64,000 nt of DNA from an uncultured Gammaproteobacteria bacterium (GTDB lineage: Bacteria > Patescibacteriota > Microgenomatia > Daviesbacterales > UBA10151): assembly GCA_964649615.1 (NCBI GenBank), contig CAZYPW010000003.1, positions 30,132-94,131 on the forward strand, written 5' to 3'. The notes beneath the pieces are model-generated. The model did no database searches. It saw only the letters and a list, made by a program, of their open reading frames with translations, and was not told the origin of the DNA. Below, one piece after another: positions 1 through 14,249 of this stretch. How positions within the stretch are numbered: position 1 is the first letter of the stretch; every line of letters begins with the position of its first letter. Both the position numbers and the translations under genes were made by a program.

Positions 1-339
1 CCCTTAAGGCGGGGAGTAGTTGGTATTGCTATAGCTTATTTTGGTTTTAAACCGCTAAAAGATTACAGAGGTAAAAAAGATTTGTTTGGCAGAAAGTTCA
101 TAATGGAAACATCAAATTTTCCAGACAGCCTGGCAACAGCTGCAGTTTTAGAGATGGGAGAAGGGAAAGAAGGAAAACCGATTGCCATAATAGAAGATAT
201 TTTAGATTTGGAATTTATCCAAAAAGAATTTAGGCCAAAATCAAAAGATGATGCTTTTGAAATTCCTGAAAAGATGGATATGTTTTATCCGCTGCTTTCT
301 TCTGTTAAGTGGAAGAAAGGCGGGAGCGGAAAAAATTAA
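1..339 (+). CDS. Partial (5'-truncated by window) CofE-like F420-0:gamma-glutamyl ligase family protein, C-terminal part
   Basis: ORF is open from base 1 in frame with the 82..339 ORF. Motifs GVVGIAIAYFGF and SLATAAVLEMGEGKEGKPIAIIED resemble the CofE family C-terminus. Confidence 0.4.
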   Translation, partial: PLRRGVVGIAIAYFGFKPLKDYRGKKDLFGRKFIMETSNFPDSLATAAVLEMGEGKEGKPIAIIEDILDLEFIQKEFRPKSKDDAFEIPEKMDMFYPLLSSVKWKKGGSGKN

Positions 340-1231
340 CAGTTTCTCTTAGGCCTTCATCTAAATTCACTTTTGCATTCCAGCCTAATTCTTGTTTTAT
401 TTTTTGTGATGATGCAACAAGTTTGCTAACATCCCCTTTTCTCTCACCCTTATCCTCAATTTCTACATCATATCCTACTATTTCAAAGATTTTTTTTACA
501 ACATCAATCACTTTAACTCCTGTCTCTGTCCCAACATTATATATATGCAGCCCTTCTTTAGATAAAGGTAAGATATGGGCAGATGTTAAATCATTAATAT
601 AGATAAAATCTCTTATCTGTTCACCCTTCCAAAAAAGTGGGATAGGTTTTTTTGCCAAAGCAGCTTTTATAAAATTTGGTATAGCATGAGTTTCAGGAGT
701 ATGCAGCTCCCCTGGCCCATAAGGATTAAAGTAACGCAGGATTATGACATCAAAGCCAAATATCTTATGATAGAGTATGCAAAATTGCTCCATGGATACT
801 TTAGTCAAACCATAAGGATTCTCCTGTTCCCCCAGAGGGTCATCCTCCAAGATAGGTGTTTTGGTTGGAGTTCCATAAACACAAGCACTGGAGGAAAAAA
901 TAATTTTTTTAACATTAGTTTTTCTCATTGCCTCCAAAAGCTTAACAGTTCCCAAAATATTATTTTCTGCAAAGATAACTGGTTGTTTGACAGATTCCCC
1001 AACTTCTATAAAGGATGCCATATGGATTACTGCGTCATGCCCGGGCAATATTTTTTCTAAATCCTGCTGGTTTAGTAAATCTATCTTATGAAAAGAAGCC
1101 CTTTTATCTATTAAATTTTGATAACCTTTGGATAAGTTATCAACTATGGTAACTGAATGCCCGGTGTTGAGTAAAAGCTCGCAAACATGCGAGCCAATAA
1201 ATCCTGCCCCGCCTGTAACTAAAATTTTCAT
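305..1231 (-). CDS. galE: UDP-glucose 4-epimerase (NAD-dependent epimerase/dehydratase, SDR family)
   Basis: N-terminal Rossmann motif MKILVTGGAGFIGSH. 308 aa and overall GalE-like sequence (YxxxK region, NPYG). Confidence 0.8.
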   Translation of the reverse strand: MKILVTGGAGFIGSHVCELLLNTGHSVTIVDNLSKGYQNLIDKRASFHKIDLLNQQDLEKILPGHDAVIHMASFIEVGESVKQPVIFAENNILGTVKLLEAMRKTNVKKIIFSSSACVYGTPTKTPILEDDPLGEQENPYGLTKVSMEQFCILYHKIFGFDVIILRYFNPYGPGELHTPETHAIPNFIKAALAKKPIPLFWKGEQIRDFIYINDLTSAHILPLSKEGLHIYNVGTETGVKVIDVVKKIFEIVGYDVEIEDKGERKGDVSKLVASSQKIKQELGWNAKVNLDEGLRETVNFFRSRLSST

Positions 1232-1276
1232 ATTTTAAACAATTTTAGCATAATGATATTATGTTAGATACTTTTA

Positions 1277-2800
1277 ATGTTTAATATAAAAACTATTCAT
1301 CTTTTGTTTTTAATTTTTGCTGCTTCTTTACTAATAAGATTTTTATATTTTCCAGAAAATATCTATTTTGGTTATGACCAGGCCAGAGATGCTTTTGCCA
1401 CAGCTGAAATTTTATCTGGGAATTTAAAAGTAGTTGGCCCTCCAACTACATTTACTGGTTTGAACCACGGAGTGCTATATTATTATCTTTATTCGCCATT
1501 TTATTTTTTAGACAGTGGAGATCCTTCATTTCCTGCAGCTTTCTTAAGAATTATTAATGCCACGGGTATTTTTTTAGTTTTTTTATTAACATCAGTTTTA
1601 TTTAATAAATATGTAGGTTTAATTTCGAGCCTACTGTTTGCTTTTTCTTTTGAACAAACCCAATTTGCCCTTTACTTAAATCACCCATCTTTAGCTGTTG
1701 TAAGCATCTTGATAATGTATTTAGGATTAGCACTTTTGATATTTAAAAAAAAGAGACTAGGGCTTATAGTTGCAAGTTTGGGTTTAGGGTTATCTATCCA
1801 ATTTGAATTTATTTTAACTTATTTAATTGTGCCTTTTATTGCCATGCTAATCTATCTTAGAAAAGAAATAAAGATTAACTTAAAAGATATTCTGGTTGCT
1901 ACTTTAGTTTTTTTACTGAGCATATCAAGTTTTATAGTGGGTGAGTTTAAATTTGGCTTTACGTCTTTTCAATCTCTCCCTTCTCTTTTTTTGGGAGCTG
2001 AAAAATCTATTAGTAATATATTTGCAGGATATATATATAGCATAGATCAGATGATTAGGTTTAATTTTGGCTTGCACCAGCATAATTTTTTGTTTGTAAT
2101 TGCTTTACTTGCTTTTCTAAAACTACTTTTTTCAAAAGTAAAAAAACAAATGATCTTTTTGGGTTTTTGGTTTTTTTCTGTTTTCTTAATATATATTGTT
2201 AGTGGTGGAGGAGATAGCAGTTCATCAGTTGTTCAATATCATCCAAATGTGGGGACTTCAATTAGTTTATTAATTTTTATTTCTTACCTAATCTATAGTC
2301 TATTTTTAAAATCCAGAGTGCTTGCAGCATTAGTTCTAATTATAATTATTGGCTTAAATCTATCAATGATTTTAAAATTTAACCAAACAGGCAGTATAGC
2401 TGAAATTAATGCCCAATCAGGGATGCTTTTATCAGATGAAAAAAAGGTCTTAGATTTTATCTACCAGGATAGCCAAGGCAAACTATTTGCTGTCAAAGCC
2501 ATCACCATGCCTTTTTATATTAATACTACCTGGAGTTATTTATTTGAGTGGTATGGATTACAAAAATATGGATATTTACCCATTTGGGGTGGGAAAAATG
2601 CCTTAGGCTACGGGGGTAATTTAGTAGTAGAAACAGCCCAGGACAAATTACCTGATATTCGTTTTCTAATCATAGAGCCTATTAGAGGTATACCCCAACA
2701 TCTTATCAATGAATTTTTAGAAGAGGAAAGTTATTTTAGTGATATACTTCTAGACATAAAAATTGGTAAATTTACAGTACAAAAAAGAATTAAAAAATAA
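1277..2800 (+). CDS. Polytopic membrane protein, putative GT-C fold glycosyltransferase (ArnT/PMT-like)
   Basis: Many predicted TM helices. First-loop motif YFGYDQARDAF...GPPTTFTGLNHGVLYYYLYSPFYF is shared with the GT-C domain of the 18326..20506 fusion protein. Confidence 0.5.
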   Translation: MFNIKTIHLLFLIFAASLLIRFLYFPENIYFGYDQARDAFATAEILSGNLKVVGPPTTFTGLNHGVLYYYLYSPFYFLDSGDPSFPAAFLRIINATGIFLVFLLTSVLFNKYVGLISSLLFAFSFEQTQFALYLNHPSLAVVSILIMYLGLALLIFKKKRLGLIVASLGLGLSIQFEFILTYLIVPFIAMLIYLRKEIKINLKDILVATLVFLLSISSFIVGEFKFGFTSFQSLPSLFLGAEKSISNIFAGYIYSIDQMIRFNFGLHQHNFLFVIALLAFLKLLFSKVKKQMIFLGFWFFSVFLIYIVSGGGDSSSSVVQYHPNVGTSISLLIFISYLIYSLFLKSRVLAALVLIIIIGLNLSMILKFNQTGSIAEINAQSGMLLSDEKKVLDFIYQDSQGKLFAVKAITMPFYINTTWSYLFEWYGLQKYGYLPIWGGKNALGYGGNLVVETAQDKLPDIRFLIIEPIRGIPQHLINEFLEEESYFSDILLDIKIGKFTVQKRIKK

Positions 2801-2808
2801 AAGCCAAT

Positions 2809-4329
2809 ATGAATTCTGTTAATAAATTAATTTTAATAATTTTATTTATAGGGGTTTTATTTAAGCTAGCATTAACTGGGAGTGGCAGCTTTTTGTTTAA
2901 TATGGATAATGCTAGAGATTTAGTTGATGTGAGAGAAATGGTGGTTTTACAAAAATTAAGGTTAATAGGCCCAACTTCTGCCATTGAAGGGTTATTTAAC
3001 GGGCCAGCCTGGTATTATCTTTTGGCAGTGCCAATTATTCTAAGTAATGGAGATCCTTACTCTACTATTGTCTTGCAAATTGTCCTTTGGGCAGTGGGTG
3101 GGTTTTTCCTTCTAAAAATTGTTTCAAAGTGGAATAAATTATTAATACTGTCAATTGGCTTTTTATGGGTGGCATCTGATTATATAAATTTAGCTACTTC
3201 ATATGCATTTAATCCAAATCCGCTCACTTTACTAAGCCCACTTTTTATATATCTTTTATATAAGTATTTGGAAACCAGTAAATTATTTTTTATTTCATCT
3301 GCTTTTTTTCTGGGCGGATTATTTTTTAATTTTGAGATGAATTTTGGAATTTTTATCCCAGCAATTATTTTTACAACTATCTTTATTTTAAACAAACAGC
3401 TTTTAAAAACAAAATCTTTTTGGATAGGTTCTTTATTTTTTATTGCCTGTTTGCTGCCACAGCTGATGTTTGAGCTAAGGCATAATTTTTTTATGGCCAA
3501 CTCTGTAATTAATTTTTTAAGAAATAGTGAAACACCTTTTTTTAATATCTTTATCAGGTTTCAGTCTTTAACAGATAGTTTTTTCAGTGTATTTTCAGCC
3601 ACTCTAATGAATCATAGGACACTTAGTTTTCTGATTCTTTTACTTTTTATTCCCATCCTGACCAATCTTATAAAGCAAAAACAAATGGATAAAATTGCCT
3701 TAATTTCTTTAATATACATCTTTCTGCCATTTTTCCTTTATCTTTTCCTGCCAGTCACAGTAAATGCCTGGCATTTAGGCGGGCCAGCATCAGCAGCAAT
3801 CATCTTGATAGGATTTTTATTTAAAAAACTCTGGGAATATAATTTAGTTGGAAAAGCTATATCTTTAACTCTTTCTATCATGATCTTTTGGTATGCAATC
3901 TTTGGGATTGGTAAGTTTATCTTTCAGGATAGGTTTACTGCTAACTTAGACCCCTCACTTTATAAAAATGAGATAGCAGCTATAGATTATGTCTATAAAT
4001 ATGCCAAAGGTGAAAATTTCAAAGTATTTGTGTTTATGCCTTCAATCATAGATTATCCTTACCAATACTTATTTTGGTGGTATGGAAAAAAAGAATATGG
4101 ATATATTCCTTATGAATATGCTTATGCTCCCAATAAGCCCCAATATATTAGCAACAAAGATAAATTTGAAGGAAGTAAAGAAAATTATAAAGGATTAGTC
4201 TTTTTAATTAAGGAACCCAATAGGGGCTTTAATTATAAAAGTGGTTGGGAAGCAGACTATAGATTTATGGAGCTTATTGCTCAGAACAAAGTAGGTAATC
4301 TAGAGATAGAGGTTAGGAAGGAATATTAA
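2809..4329 (+). CDS. Polytopic membrane protein, putative GT-C fold glycosyltransferase (paralog of 1277..2800)
   Basis: Same architecture, length (506 vs 507 aa) and first-loop motif (FNMDNARDLVD...GPTSAIEGLFNGPAWYYL) as the neighbouring gene. Conserved C-terminal YGY.P motif. Confidence 0.5.
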   Translation: MNSVNKLILIILFIGVLFKLALTGSGSFLFNMDNARDLVDVREMVVLQKLRLIGPTSAIEGLFNGPAWYYLLAVPIILSNGDPYSTIVLQIVLWAVGGFFLLKIVSKWNKLLILSIGFLWVASDYINLATSYAFNPNPLTLLSPLFIYLLYKYLETSKLFFISSAFFLGGLFFNFEMNFGIFIPAIIFTTIFILNKQLLKTKSFWIGSLFFIACLLPQLMFELRHNFFMANSVINFLRNSETPFFNIFIRFQSLTDSFFSVFSATLMNHRTLSFLILLLFIPILTNLIKQKQMDKIALISLIYIFLPFFLYLFLPVTVNAWHLGGPASAAIILIGFLFKKLWEYNLVGKAISLTLSIMIFWYAIFGIGKFIFQDRFTANLDPSLYKNEIAAIDYVYKYAKGENFKVFVFMPSIIDYPYQYLFWWYGKKEYGYIPYEYAYAPNKPQYISNKDKFEGSKENYKGLVFLIKEPNRGFNYKSGWEADYRFMELIAQNKVGNLEIEVRKEY

Positions 4330-4744
4330 AATTAATTTCTATTCTTCGTTTGTCTTTTGCTATTTTGTGGATTTTAATCTTGAAAGCATTTTTGGGAAGA
4401 GTTTCTAATTTTTCCGCCCATTCAATTACTACTATATTATTAGAGTCTGAGAAAATCTCTTCCAAACCAAGACTCAAAATATCCGATTTTTCTTCCAGGC
4501 GGTAAAGATCGATATGAAAGAGATTTTTTGTACTATTGGGAATTTGATGTTGGCGGATTAAGATGTAGGTTGGAGAGATAATTTTTTCTTTAATACCTAA
4601 ACCTTTAGCAAAGCCTTGAACAAAAGTAGTTTTTCCTGCCCCCAATTCTCCGCTTAGAGCAATAATTCTTCCTTTTAATTCTTTAGCCAGTTTAGCTGCT
4701 AAATTTTTAGTTTCTTTTTCAGATTTTGTAATTATCTTTGCCAT
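4313..4744 (-). CDS. tsaE: tRNA threonylcarbamoyladenosine (t6A) biosynthesis ATPase TsaE (YjeE family)
   Basis: Walker A GELGAGKTTFVQGFAKGLGI. ~143 aa, typical TsaE size. Confidence 0.8.
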   Translation of the reverse strand: MAKIITKSEKETKNLAAKLAKELKGRIIALSGELGAGKTTFVQGFAKGLGIKEKIISPTYILIRQHQIPNSTKNLFHIDLYRLEEKSDILSLGLEEIFSDSNNIVVIEWAEKLETLPKNAFKIKIHKIAKDKRRIEINFNIPS

Positions 4745-5892
4745 AAATTTATTCCTTTATTTTTTAAAACAATATAGCTAAGAATTGTTACTCCTGCAAC
4801 CATCATCATAATTCCAGTAATAGAAAAAAGATTGATACCTTTACTGCTTTTGTCTTCAGTTTTAATTCCAGCTACAGTTGCTATTTCATTATCTTTAGAT
4901 AAATTAGATGGGGAAGGAGATAGGGTTTTAGATGGAGAAGTGGCAGTTGGGGCAGGAGTAGCAGATTTTGTTGGAATAGGGTTGTTTTGAATAGTGGGTT
5001 GAGGAGTAGAACTAGAATTTATTTTAAGATTGCTTTCATTACTCCAAGTAGGTCCTGAACCAGATGATGTTAATCTGCCTACTTTAAAAGTGTAATCGCC
5101 AGATCCTTTAAAATCCTTGTCATTAATATCTGGTTTCACTTCTAAATTACCATTCCAATTACCAGTAGAATCTGTAGTAATTTTGTATTGATCAGAATAT
5201 TCATCTCCATACTCAACCCAGTCAGAATTTTTGGTTAGCCCAAAATATCTGGTTCCATCTGCTAATTTAAAAGCACCTTTTAAGTAATAAATAGTGCTGG
5301 GATTATTAGGAATTGATAAAGTTACTTTAACACTAAAGGATTGGTTAGAGTTTATTTGAGATGGGACATCACTTATAGTGAAAGAAGATGTTGAAGTGGC
5401 TGTAGGAGTTGGAGTGGTAGTTGGAGTAGGGGTGGGAGAAGCTGTGGACAATGAACTACAGATAATAGATGATTTTGTTGCATCAATATTAGTTTGCCAG
5501 TTGCCACCGTCAGGCACTCTACTGAAAGTCTTGCTTTGTGTTGTTGAAGTATAGGTATAACTATCGATTTCACCATTTTGATCATCCAAAGAAACAGTAT
5601 CCCCATCATTATTTAAACTAGATCCTGAGAATTCAAAATAACATAAAGAACTAGCTGGAAATAAAACAGATGGGAGAGAATGAGAATTAATATTTCCAGA
5701 AGAAGTTTTTTCTTTAATAGTCCATTGATCAAGATTTACTTCTGATGATGAAGTATTTATTAATTCAACCCATTCTTTTTCTCCAGTTGATGGGTTAGCC
5801 ATAATTTCATTTATTACAACAGTTGCAGCAAAAACAGGTCTTACCCCAATAAAGAGAAATAGGATAGTAAAAACTAGTGGCAGTATTCTCAC
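4732..5892 (-). CDS. Secreted/surface-anchored protein with lamin-tail-domain (LTD)-like N-terminal module, two Ser/Thr/Pro-rich linkers and a C-terminal TM anchor
   Basis: Signal peptide, then VVINEIMANPSTGEKEWVELIN (LTD signature). Low-complexity PTPTPTTTPTPTATSTSS and STPQPTIQNNPIPTKSATPAPTATSPSKTLSPSPS. C-terminal hydrophobic segment followed by KNKGINLWQR. Confidence 0.55.
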   Translation of the reverse strand: MRILPLVFTILFLFIGVRPVFAATVVINEIMANPSTGEKEWVELINTSSSEVNLDQWTIKEKTSSGNINSHSLPSVLFPASSLCYFEFSGSSLNNDGDTVSLDDQNGEIDSYTYTSTTQSKTFSRVPDGGNWQTNIDATKSSIICSSLSTASPTPTPTTTPTPTATSTSSFTISDVPSQINSNQSFSVKVTLSIPNNPSTIYYLKGAFKLADGTRYFGLTKNSDWVEYGDEYSDQYKITTDSTGNWNGNLEVKPDINDKDFKGSGDYTFKVGRLTSSGSGPTWSNESNLKINSSSTPQPTIQNNPIPTKSATPAPTATSPSKTLSPSPSNLSKDNEIATVAGIKTEDKSSKGINLFSITGIMMMVAGVTILSYIVLKNKGINLWQR

Positions 5893-8637: not shown

Positions 8638-9081
8638 TCACTTGACTTCCTCAACTTTACCTACATCCATTAACCAGCCTTCTTTTAAGGCTTTTTGAGT
8701 TTCACCATAAACTTTTACTTTTTTGCCTTCATATTGGGACAGATCAACTACAGATGAGGTTAAAGCCACAGGCACTGCACCTTCTCTTTCTAAAATATGG
8801 GTTCCTTCAGTATATTCAGCTGGATTTTTAGGTTGAGATTTAACTTTGATGACTCCTTCTGCAAAATCTCTAAAGGTTTTTGTATCTTGCTGAGCACTTT
8901 TAGGAGCTGTAGCTACACTAGGGACAGCGAGCCCAGATTTTCCTCCACTTCTTGCCATAATCACACCTGAAACAACACCTAAAACTAAAGCTGTACCCAC
9001 AACCAAAGAGAGAAGTTTTACAGGGTCGGAAGAGGTATCAATCAGCTTTTTGGTTATTTTCTCAACATGAGTATTTTCCAT
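8638..9081 (-). CDS. Hypothetical membrane-anchored protein (N-terminal TM, soluble C-terminal domain)
   Basis: ORF of 147 aa with hydrophobic segment LLSLVVGTALVLGVVSGVIMA. No recognisable family. In operon position between prfB and ftsE. Confidence 0.35.
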   Translation of the reverse strand: MENTHVEKITKKLIDTSSDPVKLLSLVVGTALVLGVVSGVIMARSGGKSGLAVPSVATAPKSAQQDTKTFRDFAEGVIKVKSQPKNPAEYTEGTHILEREGAVPVALTSSVVDLSQYEGKKVKVYGETQKALKEGWLMDVGKVEEVK

Positions 9082-9123
9082 ATATTGTCTCCTTATATAT
9101 TAAACATAAATTGAGTACTTTGT

Positions 9124-10197
9124 CTACCCTTTAGTTTTAAGCTCAGCTTCAATAAATTCATCTAAGTTCCCATCTAAAACTGCCTCTGTGTCTGAAGTTT
9201 CCACATTAGTCCGCAAATCCTTTACCATATGATAAGGGTGCAGCACATAAGATCTGATCTGGGTTCCCCAGGAACCTTGGGTATTGTTGCCTTTTAACTG
9301 TTTAGTTAACTGTTTTTTTTCTTCTTCTTGTTTCTGCCACAATTTTGCCCTTAACATCTTCAAAGCATTTTCCCTGTTTTGTAGTTGTGACCTTTCTGTT
9401 TGGCAGGTTACTACAATACCAGAAGGAATATGTTTTAATCTAACTGCCGTTGAAACTTTATTAACATTTTGTCCTCCTGCACCTCCTGATCTAAAGGCTT
9501 CAAACTCCAAATCTGCTTCATTTATTTCTACCTCAGTTGAATCTTCGATAACTGGTAGAACCTCAACTAGAGCAAAAGAAGTTTGCCTTAATTTATCTGC
9601 ATTAAAAGGGGACTGCCTAACTAATCTATGGGTGCCTTTTTCTCCTTTTAAATAACCAAAGGCAAAGCTCTCATGGACTATCATAGAAAAAGTTTTATAT
9701 CCCGCTTCTTCCCCAGGCATTTCATCTGTAATTTCAAAACTCCAATCCTTTTTCTCAAAATATCTTTGATACATTCTGGAAAGCATAGCTGCCCAATCCA
9801 TAGCCTCTACTCCTCCAGCACCGGAATGGACAGATAAAATTGCTTCAGCTTCGTCATGTGGATTTGATAAAAACAGTTTCAGTTCCAGCTGATCCAATAT
9901 TTTACCAAGTTCACTAGTTTCTTTTTTTAATTCTTCCATCATCTCCTGCTCCTGCGAGATTTCCAAAGCATTATTTATTCTGCTTTCCAATTCTTCCAAA
10001 GTTTGGAGCGTCTTTTGTTTGTCTGACAGCTGGCGGCTGACAGCTGAAGACTCATTACGATCATTCCAAAACCCTTCTTTCATAGTCTGTGCCTCAAGTT
10101 CCCTGATTTCTTTCCTTAAGATATCCTGATCCATCTGTTCAGAAATCTTTGTAAATCTTTCTTTTAATTCTTTTAATTTATTCTGTATTTCTTCCAT
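9124..10197 (-). CDS. prfB: Peptide chain release factor 2
   Basis: SPF tripeptide ([10 protein letters not shown]) and GGQ motif ([12 protein letters not shown]). 357 aa. Single continuous ORF with no programmed +1 frameshift site. Confidence 0.9.
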
Positions 10198-10622
10198 GAT
10201 GGAATTATATCAGCCTACTCAGCGATCCGCCAGTTGGCGGAGAGCGTGACAATCTACCCAGTGGACAAAATTTTTCGATCGAAACAAAATGTCCAAAAAT
10301 ACCTTTTATGATTGTTACGTAATGCATTACGTAATTAAATACGTACTTCATTATATTCTCGACCGAGAACATAATGAATATCCCGAGGTGTAGCTACAGT
10401 TTCACCTCGGAGGTGGGACACTAATTTAATTTATTTACTAAAATAACTGTTTAAGGCTTTTATTGCTTCTTCCATGTTTTCTTTTTTAATAATAAATGAA
10501 GTTTCGCTGAAGGTTGATACAATTTCTATAATTTGAATCCTTTTAGTAGCCATTGAGGAAAGTAACACAAAAGATATAAACTCCTAGATTTATTGACTCT
10601 GATTAGGTAGAATTTATTCATA

Positions 10623-11156
10623 GTGAATAAAAATTTAATACATTTTATTGTAACAGGTGGGACTATTGATTCTGTGTGGAATGGGGCGCAGGATACTGTG
10701 GTGGTTTCTGAACATTCTGTTTTACCTGAATATTTTGGGGAATTAGGCAGTAATTTAAAGTTTTATGAAGAGCTAAAGTTTACTGAAATTTGTATGAAGG
10801 ATAGCAGGGCTATTAGCGATGAAGACAGGCAAAATGTTTTAAAAGCAATTGAGCAATCAGAAGCTACAAAAATAATTATCACCCATGGAACATACACAAT
10901 GCCAGATACAGCCAAATATTTAAAAGAAAATTTAAAAAGAAAAGATCAAACAATTGTATTGACTGGTTCTATGGTACCTATCAAAGGATTTGATTTTTCT
11001 GATGGACCTTTTAATTTAGGGTATGCTGTGGCACAAGTCCAAAAATTACAAAGCGGAGTTTATGTTTGTATGAATGCCAGAGTGTTTACTCCTGATGAAG
11101 TTGCCAAAAATATAGATGAAGGCAAGTTTTATTCTGTTTTCAGAGAAGAACAATAA
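10623..11156 (+). CDS. Short L-asparaginase-like protein (asparaginase N-terminal domain family)
   Basis: N-terminal HFIVTGGTIDS matches the asparaginase TGGTI threonine motif. 177 aa single-domain form. Confidence 0.5.
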   Translation: MNKNLIHFIVTGGTIDSVWNGAQDTVVVSEHSVLPEYFGELGSNLKFYEELKFTEICMKDSRAISDEDRQNVLKAIEQSEATKIIITHGTYTMPDTAKYLKENLKRKDQTIVLTGSMVPIKGFDFSDGPFNLGYAVAQVQKLQSGVYVCMNARVFTPDEVAKNIDEGKFYSVFREEQ

Positions 11157-11161
11157 TCCCC

Positions 11162-11464
11162 ATGATTTTGTATATTGATACCAAAGATCAAAAGCAAGTG
11201 AAAGTTTCTTTGAAAAAAGATGGGAAAATTGTGGAAACTTTGAATGAGCAAAATGAGTATGGATCACAGGTCTTATTGCCTCTTATTTCAAAATTAGTCG
11301 ATCGTCAAAAAGTGAAATTTGGAGATTTGGAAGGAATTGAAGTAGAAACAGGTCCTGGGTCTTTTACAGGACTTAGAGTTGGGGTTTCTGTGGCTAATGC
11401 TTTAGGATTTTCCTTAGGAATTCCTGTTAATGGTAAAAAAATTGAAAGCAAATTGGTATACTAA
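11162..11464 (+). CDS. tsaB: Minimal TsaB-like t6A biosynthesis protein (YeaZ/Kae1 family N-terminal domain only)
   Basis: GPGSFTGLRVGVSVANALGFSLGIPV motif typical of TsaB/TsaD family. Only 100 aa. Confidence 0.55.
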   Translation: MILYIDTKDQKQVKVSLKKDGKIVETLNEQNEYGSQVLLPLISKLVDRQKVKFGDLEGIEVETGPGSFTGLRVGVSVANALGFSLGIPVNGKKIESKLVY

Positions 11465-11469
11465 TATTT

Positions 11470-12345
11470 GTGAAACTTTGGGATTGGTTCCTACCACATA
11501 AAGATACACACAAAAAAGCTCATTTAATTTCCTGGGAAGGATTAGTAATTTATATCCTGATTTTTATGTTTTTGCAGGTTAGTTTTTCTTTAGTTAATTT
11601 TTCAAACAAAGGAGTTTTAGGGATTTCTTCCAATGTAGATGCCAAGAGATTAATAGAACTGACAAATGGGGAGAGGCAAAAGAAAGGTTTAAATTCACTG
11701 ATTGAGAATGAAGCTTTAAGCAAGGCTGCCCATTTAAAAGCTCAAAATATGTTTACTGAAGGGTATTGGGCTCATTTTGCTCCCTCTGGGAAATCCCCTT
11801 GGGATTTTATTTTAGGTTCAGGTTATAGATTTACCTATGCTGGAGAAAATTTAGCTAAAAACTTTTATGAATCCAATGATGTGGTAGTAGCTTGGATGGA
11901 TTCACCAACCCATAGGGATAATCTACTGAGTCCTAAATACCATGATATAGGAATAGCTGTGGTGGAAGGAGTTTTAAATGGGCAACAAACCACCCTGGTA
12001 GTACAAGAATTTGGCAGCACCCAAACTTTTAGCAGTTCTCCCATTGTTTCTGTGGGCAATCAGACATTAACTATCCCCAAAGAGGAATATGAGAAAAAAC
12101 CTGAACTTCTAGCTGCTATAACTGCACAATCAGTTAATCAAAACTACACCCTAGATCCATTTTTAATTAGCAAAACAGCTTCTTTGTCTATAATTTCATT
12201 GATGGCTATTTTACTAATTTGTGACTTTGTTATTCTTAAAAGAAGAGGGGTTTTCAGATTAGGTTCACATCATATTGCCCATATGTCACTTTTAACAGCA
12301 GCAGCAGCAGGAATTTTAAGTTTGAGTCCTGGATCAATACTGTAA
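11470..12345 (+). CDS. Membrane-anchored CAP/SCP/PR-1 domain protein
   Basis: N-terminal TM. CAP-domain motifs GYWAHFAP...YAGENLAKN...HRDNLLSPKYHDIGIAVVEG. C-terminal hydrophobic tail. Confidence 0.65.
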   Translation: MKLWDWFLPHKDTHKKAHLISWEGLVIYILIFMFLQVSFSLVNFSNKGVLGISSNVDAKRLIELTNGERQKKGLNSLIENEALSKAAHLKAQNMFTEGYWAHFAPSGKSPWDFILGSGYRFTYAGENLAKNFYESNDVVVAWMDSPTHRDNLLSPKYHDIGIAVVEGVLNGQQTTLVVQEFGSTQTFSSSPIVSVGNQTLTIPKEEYEKKPELLAAITAQSVNQNYTLDPFLISKTASLSIISLMAILLICDFVILKRRGVFRLGSHHIAHMSLLTAAAAGILSLSPGSIL

Positions 12346-12514: not shown

Positions 12515-13230
12515 AAGGCGTTATACTAGCAGGAGGTTTGGGCACCCGCCTTTATCCTCTAACCCAAGTCACAAATAAACATTTATTGCCGGTTTATAAC
12601 AAACCGATGATTTTTTATCCCATTGAAACATTAGTTAAAGCAGGAATAGAAGATATTTTAGTGGTGACTGGTGGCCCCCACTGCGGGCACTTTATGTCTA
12701 TTTTAAAAAATGGCCACGAGTTGGGGATTAAACATCTAGAGTATGCCTATCAGGAAGATGAAGGGGGAATAGCCCAAGCCTTATCTTTAGCAGAAGATTT
12801 TGCAGATGGTGACAGCGTGACAGTAATTTTGGGTGATAATACCTCTGATGCAGATATATCTGAGGCTGTCAGTAATTTTAAGGAAGGGGCTTTAATATTT
12901 TTAAAAGAAGTGGTGGATCCAGAGCGTTTTGGAATTGCCACTTTTGATCCAGAAGATAGCTCAAAGATAGTCAAGATTACGGAAAAACCAAAAAACCCTG
13001 ATTCTAAAATGGCTGTGACTGGTGTTTATATTTATGATAAGGGGGTATTTGATTTTATTAAACAAATTAAACCTTCAGATAGGGGGGAATTGGAGATTAC
13101 TGATGTTAATAATAAATATATAGATAAAGGACAGCTGAGATGGAGTGAACTGGAAGGTTACTGGTGGGATGCTGGAACTTTTGATACTTTACTTGAGGCT
13201 AATAACTATTGGGCAAAAAGGGGCAAGTAA
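12511..13230 (+). CDS. rmlA: Glucose-1-phosphate thymidylyltransferase-like sugar nucleotidyltransferase (short form)
   Basis: MKGVILAGGLGTRLYPLTQVTNKHLLPVYNKPMIFYPIE is the canonical RmlA N-terminus. 239 aa. Confidence 0.75.
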   Translation: MKGVILAGGLGTRLYPLTQVTNKHLLPVYNKPMIFYPIETLVKAGIEDILVVTGGPHCGHFMSILKNGHELGIKHLEYAYQEDEGGIAQALSLAEDFADGDSVTVILGDNTSDADISEAVSNFKEGALIFLKEVVDPERFGIATFDPEDSSKIVKITEKPKNPDSKMAVTGVYIYDKGVFDFIKQIKPSDRGELEITDVNNKYIDKGQLRWSELEGYWWDAGTFDTLLEANNYWAKRGK

Positions 13231-14249
13231 TGAAGCTTTTAGTAACTGGCGGAGCTGGATTTATTGGTTCTAATTTTATTCATTACTGGTTAAATTCACA
13301 CTCCCAAGATCAAGTTATCAATTTAGATGTTTTAACTTATGCAGGACACCTAGAATCTCTTAAAGATATTGAAGAATCCGCCAGCTGGCGGACTAATTAC
13401 AAATTTGTCCAAGGTGATATTACTGATCCAGAGGTTGTTAAAGAAGCTATGATTGGTGTGGATATTGTGGTCCATTTTGCTGCTGAATCCCATGTTGACA
13501 GGTCAGTGATAGATCCTTTGCTTTTTGTTAAAACCAATGTTTTAGGGACAGCAATTTTATTAAATGCTGCATTAGATGCAAAAATTAAGAGATTTCACCA
13601 TATCTCAACAGATGAGGTTTTTGGGCAACTAGGCCCCAATGATCCTCCTTTTGATGAAAAAACTAAATATGATCCCCGTACTCCCTACTCAGCCTCCAAA
13701 GCAGGATCTGACCATTTAGTGAGAGCATATTTTGAGACATATGGCTTACCAGTGACCATTTCTAACTGTTCTAACAACTTCGGGCCATATCATGACCCGG
13801 AAAAATTAATCCCCAGATTTATCACCAATCTTTTAGAAGGGCAAAAAGTCCCTTTGATGGGAAAAGGAGAAAATATCAGGGACTGGGTTTATGTGGAAGA
13901 CCATAATAGGGCAGTGGATATTATTTTAGAAAAAGGGAAAGTGGGGGAAACCTATTGCATAGGAGGAGAGGAAAAAAGCAATTTTGAAGTAACCAAAAAG
14001 TTGCTGGAATTTTTAGGTAAAAATGAAAGTATGATTGAGTTTGTAGAACATAGATTAGGCCATGATTTTAGATATGCCATTGATGATGCAAAAATAAGAG
14101 CTTTAGGGTGGAGTCCTCAGGCGCCATTTGAGGAAAGGCTCAAAGAAACTGTGGAGTGGTTTAAAGAAAATGAGTGGTGGTGGAAACCCTTGAAAAATAA
14201 TAGGCCAAATGTAGATAGGGTGGCTCAGAAGGGATATCAAAATGGATAA
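13230..14249 (+). CDS. rmlB: dTDP-glucose 4,6-dehydratase
   Basis: MKLLVTGGAGFIGSNFIHYWL, YSASKAGSDHL, extended SDR. Start chosen at ATG 13230 (TAATG overlap with rmlA stop) rather than the upstream in-frame 13209. Confidence 0.88.
   Translation: MKLLVTGGAGFIGSNFIHYWLNSHSQDQVINLDVLTYAGHLESLKDIEESASWRTNYKFVQGDITDPEVVKEAMIGVDIVVHFAAESHVDRSVIDPLLFVKTNVLGTAILLNAALDAKIKRFHHISTDEVFGQLGPNDPPFDEKTKYDPRTPYSASKAGSDHLVRAYFETYGLPVTISNCSNNFGPYHDPEKLIPRFITNLLEGQKVPLMGKGENIRDWVYVEDHNRAVDIILEKGKVGETYCIGGEEKSNFEVTKKLLEFLGKNESMIEFVEHRLGHDFRYAIDDAKIRALGWSPQAPFEERLKETVEWFKENEWWWKPLKNNRPNVDRVAQKGYQNG

Follow-up and report, generated by a model that had tools for sequence, protein, structure and literature searches.

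A predicted REP-type repeat, a pseudogene remnant and palindromes in the long spacer upstream of a release factor 2 gene of Candidatus Daviesbacteria

The 425-nt gap between the genes for release factor 2 (RF2, prfB) and an asparaginase-like protein in a genome of Candidatus Daviesbacteria (CPR) is probably a mosaic that a hotspot of gene turnover has left behind between RF2 and a block of TsaB-like and CAP-domain genes, and not one functional RNA or leader. Read in the order of the RF2 strand, it comprises the 3' remnant of an ACT-domain gene with its front deleted, one copy of a REP-type repeat, the AT-rich palindromes P1 to P3, a probable variant of a second repeat (R2) with a GC hairpin, and the RF2 promoter. 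The repeat with its CCACC hairpin represents a previously undescribed family of REP-type mobile repeats of candidate-phyla bacteria, although the kind (REP/RAYT) is already known.

For annotation, this anatomy keeps a long structured spacer from being misread as a riboswitch or sRNA, and it flags a pseudogene remnant. Candidate-phyla genomes are tiny and compact, and they are usually thought to be repeat-poor. The present analysis reveals in Patescibacteria (candidate-phyla) genomes a REP-type family with its own Y1 transposase, which occurs in many divergent lineages, at gene ends and as an in-frame insertion in a conserved gene, and which marks a hypervariable toxin-antitoxin/defence island beside prfB. 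The element thus provides a handle on the genome plasticity of uncultured bacteria and is a source of assembly breaks in MAGs. We consider the family, the in-frame insertions and the hypervariable island to be of moderate interest to specialists.

Anatomy of the RF2 spacer

The window, that is, the whole 64,000-nt stretch of DNA that was analyzed, contains 50 called genes with a median gap of 2 nt. The 425-nt gap is its largest true intergenic gap, so the description of this spacer as exceptionally long in the original prediction was correct. The flanking genes had been called prfB and asparaginase-like, and both names hold. The RF2 gene is a single 357-aa ORF with PCRF and RF-1 domains, whose product is named release factor 2 in the sources, while the asparaginase-like protein has 177 aa and only the asparaginase N-terminal domain. 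An exact-protein look-up of the window RF2 gave no match. The gap consists of several unrelated parts and lends no support to the proposal that it is, as a whole, one ncRNA, leader or operator cluster. In window coordinates, its features are the following.

10204-10212, minus strand: putative extended -10 promoter box TGATATAAT, ending 6 nt from the RF2 ATG (10197-10195); from sequence and relatives
10218-10254, minus strand: probable R2 repeat variant, GATTGTCAC - GCTCTCCGCCAACTGGCGGA - TCGCTGAG; from matching ends and position
10262-10295, no strand assigned: P3, a 34-bp imperfect palindrome with halves TGGACAAAATTTTTCGA and TCGAAACAAAATGTCCA, 13 of 17 positions complementary, core TTTCGATCGAAA
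10315-10346, no strand assigned: P2, a 20-bp perfect palindrome TTACGTAATGCATTACGTAA (10315-10334) with a third TACGTA
10347-10378, no strand assigned: P1, a 32-bp palindrome TTCATTATATTCTCG-ac-CGAGAACATAATGAA, 14 of 15 positions complementary
10381-10418, minus strand: predicted REP-type element, single copy, TCCCACCTC-C-GAGGTG-AAACTGTAGCTA-CACCTCGGGA; from a covariance model
10431-10577, minus strand: pseudogene remnant, the last 48 codons and stop of an ACT-domain gene; from Pfam, tblastn and relatives
10608-10622, plus strand: promoter-like TAGAAT box, 9 nt before the GTG of the asparaginase-like gene; from sequence

All five palindromes and hairpins listed in the original prediction were found at the coordinates given there, and their presence is far beyond chance. 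Summed perfect arms of 17 were reached in one of 2,000 dinucleotide shuffles, and the 20-bp palindrome at 10315-10334 is the longest perfect palindrome in the 64 kb. Two of the listed elements proved to be parts of larger ones, since TTTCGATCGAAA forms the core of the 34-bp P3 (10262-10295) and the CCGCCAGTTGGCGG palindrome extends to 7+2+7 at 10226-10241. Among 1,276 tiles of 233 nt covering the window, 10198-10430 has the highest self-complementarity and also the largest GC-corrected residual; its minimum free energy is -76 kcal/mol versus -43 +/- 7.8 kcal/mol for the tiles. Folding predictions in both orientations had been proposed, and both strands of the 425 nt exceed shuffled sequences (z of -4.9 for plus and -4.7 for minus). 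Within the 64-kb window, every one of the palindromes is unique.

The spacer had been taken as intergenic, but the segment 10431-10577 on the minus strand, one third of the gap, is the remnant of an ACT-domain gene that had been overlooked. The 45-aa ORF at 10431-10568 has weak Pfam matches to ACT_7 and ACT_9, and in tblastn the segment 10434-10577 is 65% identical to residues 206-253 of the 253-aa ACT protein of a related locus, L005 (E = 2e-13). Upstream of RF2 in L085 there is an intact 216-aa ACT homologue on the same strand as the window remnant, and a longer remnant is kept in L083/L084, where the asparaginase-like protein is 90% identical to that of the window. Between the window and L083 remnants there are nine synonymous and nine non-synonymous codon differences, which suggests relaxed constraint. 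The front of the ACT gene, together with whatever separated it from the asparaginase-like gene, appears to have been lost by deletion. Inversion of the ACT fragment, the first idea drawn from L005, was dropped, because with the intact L085 gene on the strand of the remnant a deletion is enough and no inversion is needed.

Promoter-like boxes stand at both ends of the gap. On the RF2 side, 58 of 69 relatives have a TAnn[AT]T box at a distance of 4-10 nt from the ATG, a Shine-Dalgarno-like sequence precedes RF2 in only four of the 69, and we infer that the RF2 mRNA is leaderless. Since the box abuts the start codon, all the palindromes would lie upstream of the promoter and outside any 5' UTR, which contradicts the suggestion of a cis-regulatory leader. 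On the other side, a homologous TAGAAT is found 6 nt before the ATG of the asparaginase-like gene in L083, and TGTTAAAAT 9 nt before the ATG in L209. Both flanking genes therefore look leaderless, with box-type promoters abutting both start codons. In L209, RF2 and the asparaginase-like gene diverge across only 57 nt with little beyond two -10-type boxes; as this spacer suffices there, most of the 425-nt gap of the window is dispensable for expressing either gene.

The stretch next to the RF2 -10 box contains the CCGCCAGTTGGCGG palindrome at the place where a -35 element would be expected. In three relatives (L016, L018 and L023), GATTGYCAC, a GC hairpin and TCGCAATGAC stand in this order 8-13 nt before the RF2 TATAAT, and six others (L003, L014, L019, L020, L034 and L217) have the 3' end of R2 alone before RF2. 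Dispersed R2 copies, GATTGCCACGTCGCTTCGCTCCTCGCAATGAC, occur in L027, L053, L083 and L206. The contigs of L083/L084 break inside this second repeat, GATTGCCACGTCGCTTCGCTCCTCGCAA(TGAC), which is also dispersed in L027, L053 and L206; the elements before the RF2 TATAAT in L016, L018 and L023 are variants that share its ends and have a GC hairpin between them. By its 9 + 8 matching end bases and its position only, 10218-10254 is probably a variant of R2.

The three central palindromes appear to be lineage-restricted. In P2, TACGTA hexamers start at 10316, 10328 and 10340, a period of 12 bp. The single counterpart was found in L216, whose RF2 is 84% identical and whose asparaginase-like gene and RF2 are co-directional and separated by 76 nt. 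This spacer aligns to 10310-10380 (P1 and P2) with a score of 51, versus 25.9 +/- 4.4 and a maximum of 43 for shuffles, and it carries one CGATCG-centred palindrome as well as ATTACGTAAT, 7 nt before the RF2 -10 box (TATAAT). Other than L216, neither blastn nor tblastx detected a counterpart of P1-P3 in 1.4 Mb of related loci. For P3, homology is limited to a TTCTCGRTCGAGAA-like core that is also present in L216 and in part of the coding sequence of TsaB-like genes; P1, P3 and the L216 palindrome have one core in common, which is also present in TsaB-like coding DNA. The partial conservation of P1/P2 in L216, with ATTACGTAAT beside the -10 box, hints at a function beyond debris.

Several other origins of these sequences were considered and rejected. 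Short BLAST matches pointed to P1 and P3 as pieces of a TsaB-like pseudogene, but an nhmmer profile of 41 TsaB-like genes found the intact gene (E = 6e-76) and nothing in the spacer, and only the palindromic core is common. A phage or plasmid origin of 10198-10430 was discarded because comparison with phages and plasmids gave chance-level matches only; in viral contigs, the sole exact 20-mer match was an unrelated coding sequence. An 18-nt exact match of P1 in L126 has no palindrome or common context and was treated as chance. There is also a 25-nt similarity of GCGATCCGCCAGnnGGCGGAGAGCG to L131 and L092, and other TCCGCCAGCTGGCGGA matches fall in coding sequence; Rfam scans of L131 and L092 returned only a tRNA, in L131.

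The original prediction reported no sign of tRNA, tmRNA, RNase P or SRP RNA, and we agree, as ARAGORN found no tRNA or tmRNA gene and the Rfam search at E <= 10 over 9000-12000 gave no relevant family (riboswitch, leader, sRNA, RNase P, SRP or tmRNA). The Rfam/Infernal check that had been proposed thus returned no family even at this threshold, and a scan of 16 related loci at gathering scores gave no match. The idea of a structured ncRNA is not supported: it has no Rfam match, and comparison among relatives backs a single hairpin, which is part of a dispersed REP-type DNA repeat with an associated Y1 transposase.

Gene turnover at the RF2 junction

We surveyed 80 loci for RF2 relatives with 52-82% identity; Candidatus Daviesbacteria and other Microgenomates account for most of them. 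Their usual gene order is a CAP-domain gene on the minus strand, a TsaB-like 100-aa gene on the minus strand, 30-70 nt, and RF2 on the plus strand. In the window, the asparaginase-like gene and the 425-nt gap are placed between the TsaB-like gene and RF2. The same position is occupied in other loci by an AbiEii toxin pair (L003, L212), a PIN toxin pair (L015, where the 5' end of RF2 is duplicated), Fic (L083, L208), YafQ (L209), a 373-aa HTH protein (L208), an ACT-domain gene with two unknown genes (L085), or unknown genes for 193-208 aa (L213, L217). The asparaginase-like gene itself points the same way as RF2 in L216, L005 and L016; in L003, L085, L209 and the window the two genes diverge.

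Conservation of the spacer among relatives, which had been put forward as a check, is found only in part: the REP hairpin and part of P1/P2 recur, whereas the overall arrangement is kept in no relative. Two contigs of the same population are 100% identical, the contigs of a 90%-identity relative break inside a repeat, and the best RF2 relatives (84%) have other gene content at this spot.

A family of REP-type repeats and its transposase

When the spacer was compared with the RF2 loci by BLAST, 10355-10425 was the sole stretch with a match, in L009 and L015. A first covariance model detected further copies in L005, L016, L035, L037, L047, L048 and L053. In the metagenome collection, a scan with the pattern CCACCNNNNNGGTGGAN{8,11}CACCTNNGGA matched at least 120 stretches, nearly all of them on contigs of 32-47% GC, and there were 149-165 distinct copies among the matches listed. 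Their consensus is TT-CCACC-N5-GGTGGA-N9-11-CACCT-nn-GGGA-TTTT. The borders are sharp, from TT/CCACC to CACCTnGGGAtTTTt, and similarity stops abruptly on both sides.

The consensus hairpin pairs CCACC(n) with (n)GGTGG. Its five inner pairs were fixed by the way the copies were collected and are uninformative on covariation. The sixth pair (6-10) covaries (T-A in 65, C-G in 59 and T.G in 20 copies) and is paired in 145 of 149 copies versus 117 in shuffles. Besides single copies there are inverted doublets like REPINs, as 31 of 151 copies have an inverted left arm (for example in L111, L120, L136 and L153), and 15 carry an extra direct CCACC. With respect to genes, 38 of 165 copies follow a co-directional stop at a distance of up to 150 nt, 85 are in other spacers and 42 inside mechanical ORFs, and a run of at least four T follows the element in 59 of the 165. 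The copy number looks low, with one copy in the 64-kb window and about one per 90 kb in loci that were not selected by motif. The hairpin arms resemble Shine-Dalgarno and anti-Shine-Dalgarno sequences (GGAGGTGG and CCACCTCC).

The membership of the window element was assessed with a covariance model built only from 27 copies flanking transposase genes and applied, unfiltered, to the entire window. The model matched 10372-10424 (minus strand) over its full length with 33.4 bits (E = 2e-8) and gave no other significant match in the 64 kb. Judged by this match, the window element is a member of the CCACC family. It is a singlet that starts 12 nt after the stop of the ACT remnant on the RF2 strand, and its family hairpin is CACCTC/GAGGTG at 10403-10415. 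The 8-bp hairpin CCGAGGTG-N12-CACCTCGG (10383-10410) of the original prediction is an alternative pairing that competes with it. This pairing joins the middle arm of the REP element to its third segment; its length is 5 bp in most copies and 8 bp in only 17 of 134. The window copy may act at most as a 3'-end hairpin or insulator.

Four relatives (L009, L035, L048 and L053) have a REP element or a GC-rich variant of it inside the TsaB-like gene, where it forms an in-frame insertion of 14-19 aa; the genes of the window, L003 and L085 are without the insertion. The element therefore seems able to insert into genes.

Near the REP copies, the dominant cluster of neighbouring ORFs encodes a 215-240-aa protein, present in 18 loci among the matches listed. 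It matches Pfam Y1_Tnp (IS200-like) with 29.6-43.6 bits, above the cut-off of 23, and its sole NCBIfam match is the REP-associated tyrosine transposase NF047646 (E of 1e-14 to 3e-14), with scores of 53-54.5 bits that are under the curated cut-off of 80 bits. Ten of 17 transposase genes have a sense REP copy 27-32 nt before the ATG, and most are followed by inverted copies at 8-24 nt from the stop. Two transposase genes lie side by side in L116 and again in L158. No transposase gene was found in the 64-kb window or in 86 RF2/asparaginase loci. The window copy is thus best seen as an orphan that is linked to the transposase by sequence family only.

A RAYT-like, IS200-like Y1 (HUH) transposase thus accompanies the CCACC family as its dedicated enzyme. 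It may recognise the CCACC...GGTGG hairpin and the unpaired CACCTnnGGGA on single-stranded DNA, and would insert new copies at gene ends, in spacers and sometimes within coding sequence.

Alternative explanations

The palindromes may be viewed as neutral by-products of template switching or quasi-palindrome correction, during repair and replication of DNA that deletions had left free of selection; the inverted repeats would then help to drive further inversions and deletions at the hotspot. This is possible, though less likely than not. It would account for the duplicated pieces common to P1 and P2 (TACGTAATGCATTA and TACGTACTTCATTA), for the one core in P1, P3 and the L216 palindrome, for the variable orientation of the asparaginase-like gene between lineages, and for the stepwise ACT deletion from L085 through L083 to the window. 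However, no breakpoints have been mapped to the palindromes, and the proposal is a refinement of the mosaic explanation that is indistinguishable from it. We think it unlikely that P1-P3 are instead operators of one or more dimeric DNA-binding proteins, either an antitoxin or regulator that the island once encoded or a protein that controls RF2 or the asparaginase-like gene, so that the gap would be a regulatory hub and not debris. Perfect or near-perfect palindromes with 0-2-nt centres are typical of DNA sites rather than RNA hairpins, the TACGTA hexamers of P2 have a 12-bp period, ATTACGTAAT and the CGATCG-centred palindrome recur in the L216 spacer with ATTACGTAAT 7 nt before TATAAT, and toxin-antitoxin genes occupy the same island in relatives. 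Yet no regulator gene adjoins the region in the window, the sites are found nowhere else in the 64 kb or, except for L216, in 1.4 Mb of related loci, their distance of 50-180 nt places them upstream of the RF2 -10 box and not over it, and L209 does without any of P1-P3. A broader proposal, to which we give a slim chance, is that the CCACC element and the Y1 transposase form a long-lived CPR REP system shared vertically and horizontally. Its copies would be functional modules at the RNA level (3'-end stabilisers, ribosome-binding decoys or pairing switches), the transposase would drive the turnover at the hotspot by prfB, and ATTACGTAAT and the CGATCG core would be real regulatory sites of RF2.

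A small structured RNA on the plus strand is very improbable. It would start at about 10297 from TGGACA-N17-CAAAAT (10262-10290), run through the P2 and P1 hairpins, and end at the REP hairpin and the T-rich TAATTTAATTTATTT. The promoter-like site matches at nine of 12 positions, three strong consecutive hairpins appear in the minimum-free-energy fold, and a T-rich tract does follow the REP hairpin on the plus strand. Such promoter-like sites are not enriched, though (five found versus 3.9 expected from shuffles), there is no Rfam match, and the hairpins are almost loopless. The two strands fold equally, as expected for DNA palindromes, the arrangement is conserved in no relative, and the REP part is a dispersed DNA repeat. 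We give practically no weight to a chromosomal replication origin, an idea based on the strand switch, the GC skew and, in P3, two inverted sequences that resemble DnaA boxes. Cumulative GC skew is lowest at about 10400, almost every gene to the right of this point is on the plus strand, and TGGACAAAA matches seven of nine positions of a reverse DnaA box. This candidate was rejected because the skew simply follows the gene strand, being positive again at 1-5000, and because the same junction measures 30-70 nt, or 57 nt, in relatives; the DnaA-box matches are weak, and there is no dnaA or dnaN gene nearby. The mosaic remains the preferred explanation.

Comparison with known systems

With 38 of 165 copies shortly after a stop codon and a T run after 59 of 165, the CCACC element recalls intrinsic terminators and the paired DUS of Neisseria. 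It differs from them in that one conserved sequence occurs beside unrelated genes and in unrelated genomes, most copies are without a T run, and some are inside ORFs. The ends of IS200/IS605 elements (IS608) have a subterminal hairpin and a nearby short motif that are recognised by the Y1 HUH transposase on single-stranded DNA (PMC6006769). A hairpin with a short conserved motif nearby is likewise found in the present element, but most of its copies have no transposase between them, and where there is one, it stands between inverted copies and not between distinct left and right ends.

Rickettsia palindromic elements (RPEs) are small palindromic repeats of 100-150 bp inserted in frame in protein-coding genes. 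To our knowledge, no dedicated transposase is known for them. The in-frame insertions of the TsaB-like genes in four relatives are similar, whereas the element described here is about 42 nt long and has a Y1 transposase.

Copies of classical REPs run into the hundreds. REP/REPIN and RAYT systems are known from Escherichia coli and Pseudomonas (PMC3116915, PMC5581495, PMC3479197), and a Y1 transposase flanked by inverted REP copies is the arrangement that defines them (PMC5581495, PMC3116915). For RAYT groups 1 and 4, the associated 16-mers occur 12-14 times per replicon, and the low copy number of the CCACC element is like theirs (PMC5581495). We found no description of REP/RAYT in CPR/Patescibacteria in the literature searched, which is absence of evidence only.

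There are clear differences from the known systems. The element occurs in a CPR host (Microgenomates/Daviesbacteria), it has no sequence relationship to known REPs, and one family is common to many divergent genomes. The unpaired motif is CACCTnnGGGA on the 3' side of the hairpin, as opposed to GTAG on the 5' side in known REPs, the hairpin arms mimic Shine-Dalgarno and anti-Shine-Dalgarno sequences, and the transposase scores below the NCBIfam RAYT cut-off. The likeness extends to the form of the repeat, which is a short, imperfect palindrome whose hairpin adjoins a conserved unpaired motif, the occurrence of both singlets and inverted doublets, the preference of the copies for spacers and positions just past stop codons, and the IS200-like Y1 transposase gene between inverted copies. 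By the features tested on the sequences, namely a dispersed palindrome, a covarying hairpin, a flanked Y1 transposase and doublets, the CCACC element appears to behave as a REP/REPIN-RAYT system and fits this class.

RF2 gene start and adjoining repeats

Starts of the RF2 gene were compared between the window (box at 10204-10212) and the loci L001-L080, which encode RF2 relatives. In this clade, a TATAAT-type box lies 4-10 nt 5' of the RF2 ATG in 58 of 69 cases, and a Shine-Dalgarno sequence precedes the gene in just four of the 69. A box adjoining the ATG, together with the near-absence of Shine-Dalgarno sequences, implies that the RF2 mRNAs of the clade would be leaderless. The start pattern of the TsaB-like and asparaginase-like genes in L009, L015 and L209 looks the same. 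Programmed +1 frameshifts are present in many bacterial prfB genes; the RF2 gene of the window, being a single unbroken ORF, lacks one. The genes and strings considered in the window are as follows.

9124-10197, minus strand: RF2 gene, single unbroken ORF of 357 aa
10222-10246: 25-nt string GCGATCCGCCAGnnGGCGGAGAGCG
10623-11156: gene for a 177-aa protein with the asparaginase N-terminal domain only
11162-11464: gene for a 100-aa protein matching the TsaD/TsaB fold in part (Pfam positions 30-84 of 264)
13377-13392: TCCGCCAGCTGGCGGA, perfect 16-bp palindrome within a 346-aa ORF (13209-14249)

The 100-aa and 177-aa genes look truncated, yet they are conserved and widespread among relatives.

Variants of a second dispersed repeat, GATTGCCACGTCGCTTCGCTCCTCGCAATGAC, one frame of which translates as FAPRND, occur at the -35 position of RF2 promoters; the probable variant in the window is at 10218-10254. 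Two Logan contigs from a close relative end inside this repeat, and copies were located as follows.

L027, 1164-1195
L053, 3449-3480
L083, 1-28
L206, 2831-2862 of its reverse complement, minus strand

The string GCGATCCGCCAGnnGGCGGAGAGCG and its flanks were found again, with borderline significance, in two unrelated metagenome contigs (L131, 1224-1248; L092, 4803-4827), and the L131 copy has a tRNA gene about 60 nt (57 nt) downstream. The string has no match in Rfam. TCCGCCAGCTGGCGGA is almost identical to the palindrome at 10226-10241, a likeness that appears to be coincidental.

Variability of the junction and repeat insertion

The junction of the RF2 and TsaB-like genes is a hypervariable island (L003, L015, L083, L085, L208, L209, L212, L213, L217), which holds AbiEii, PIN, Fic, YafQ, HTH protein, ACT-domain or unknown genes depending on the relative; the orientation of the asparaginase-like gene switches from lineage to lineage. 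A PIN toxin pair is inserted at the start of RF2 in L015, where the first ~12 codons are duplicated (3261-3300 and 4001-4040) with 11 of the 12 first residues identical, and the duplication also takes in the REP and promoter sequence lying upstream. In this locus a TATTAT or TATAAT box precedes both MEELQKKLRELK and MEELQKKLKELK.

One subfamily of the CCACC element, a dispersed REP-type repeat, carries an extra conserved 3' module, TTTTTAnCATTTTTGAGGCTAg, at about 12 metagenome loci (for example L088, L089, L126, L166, L169, L178 and L194); the window copy is without it. Four TsaB-like genes also hold an antisense copy of the CCACC repeat or of a variant rich in GC.

L009, 3472-3828
L035, 2404-2751
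L048, 987-1331
L053, 2422-2769

There it contributes an in-frame insertion of 14-19 aa at a single position across the four loci, and the TsaB-like genes of the window, L003 and L085 are without this insertion. Such in-frame insertion of the element within TsaB-like genes resembles the Rickettsia palindromic elements.
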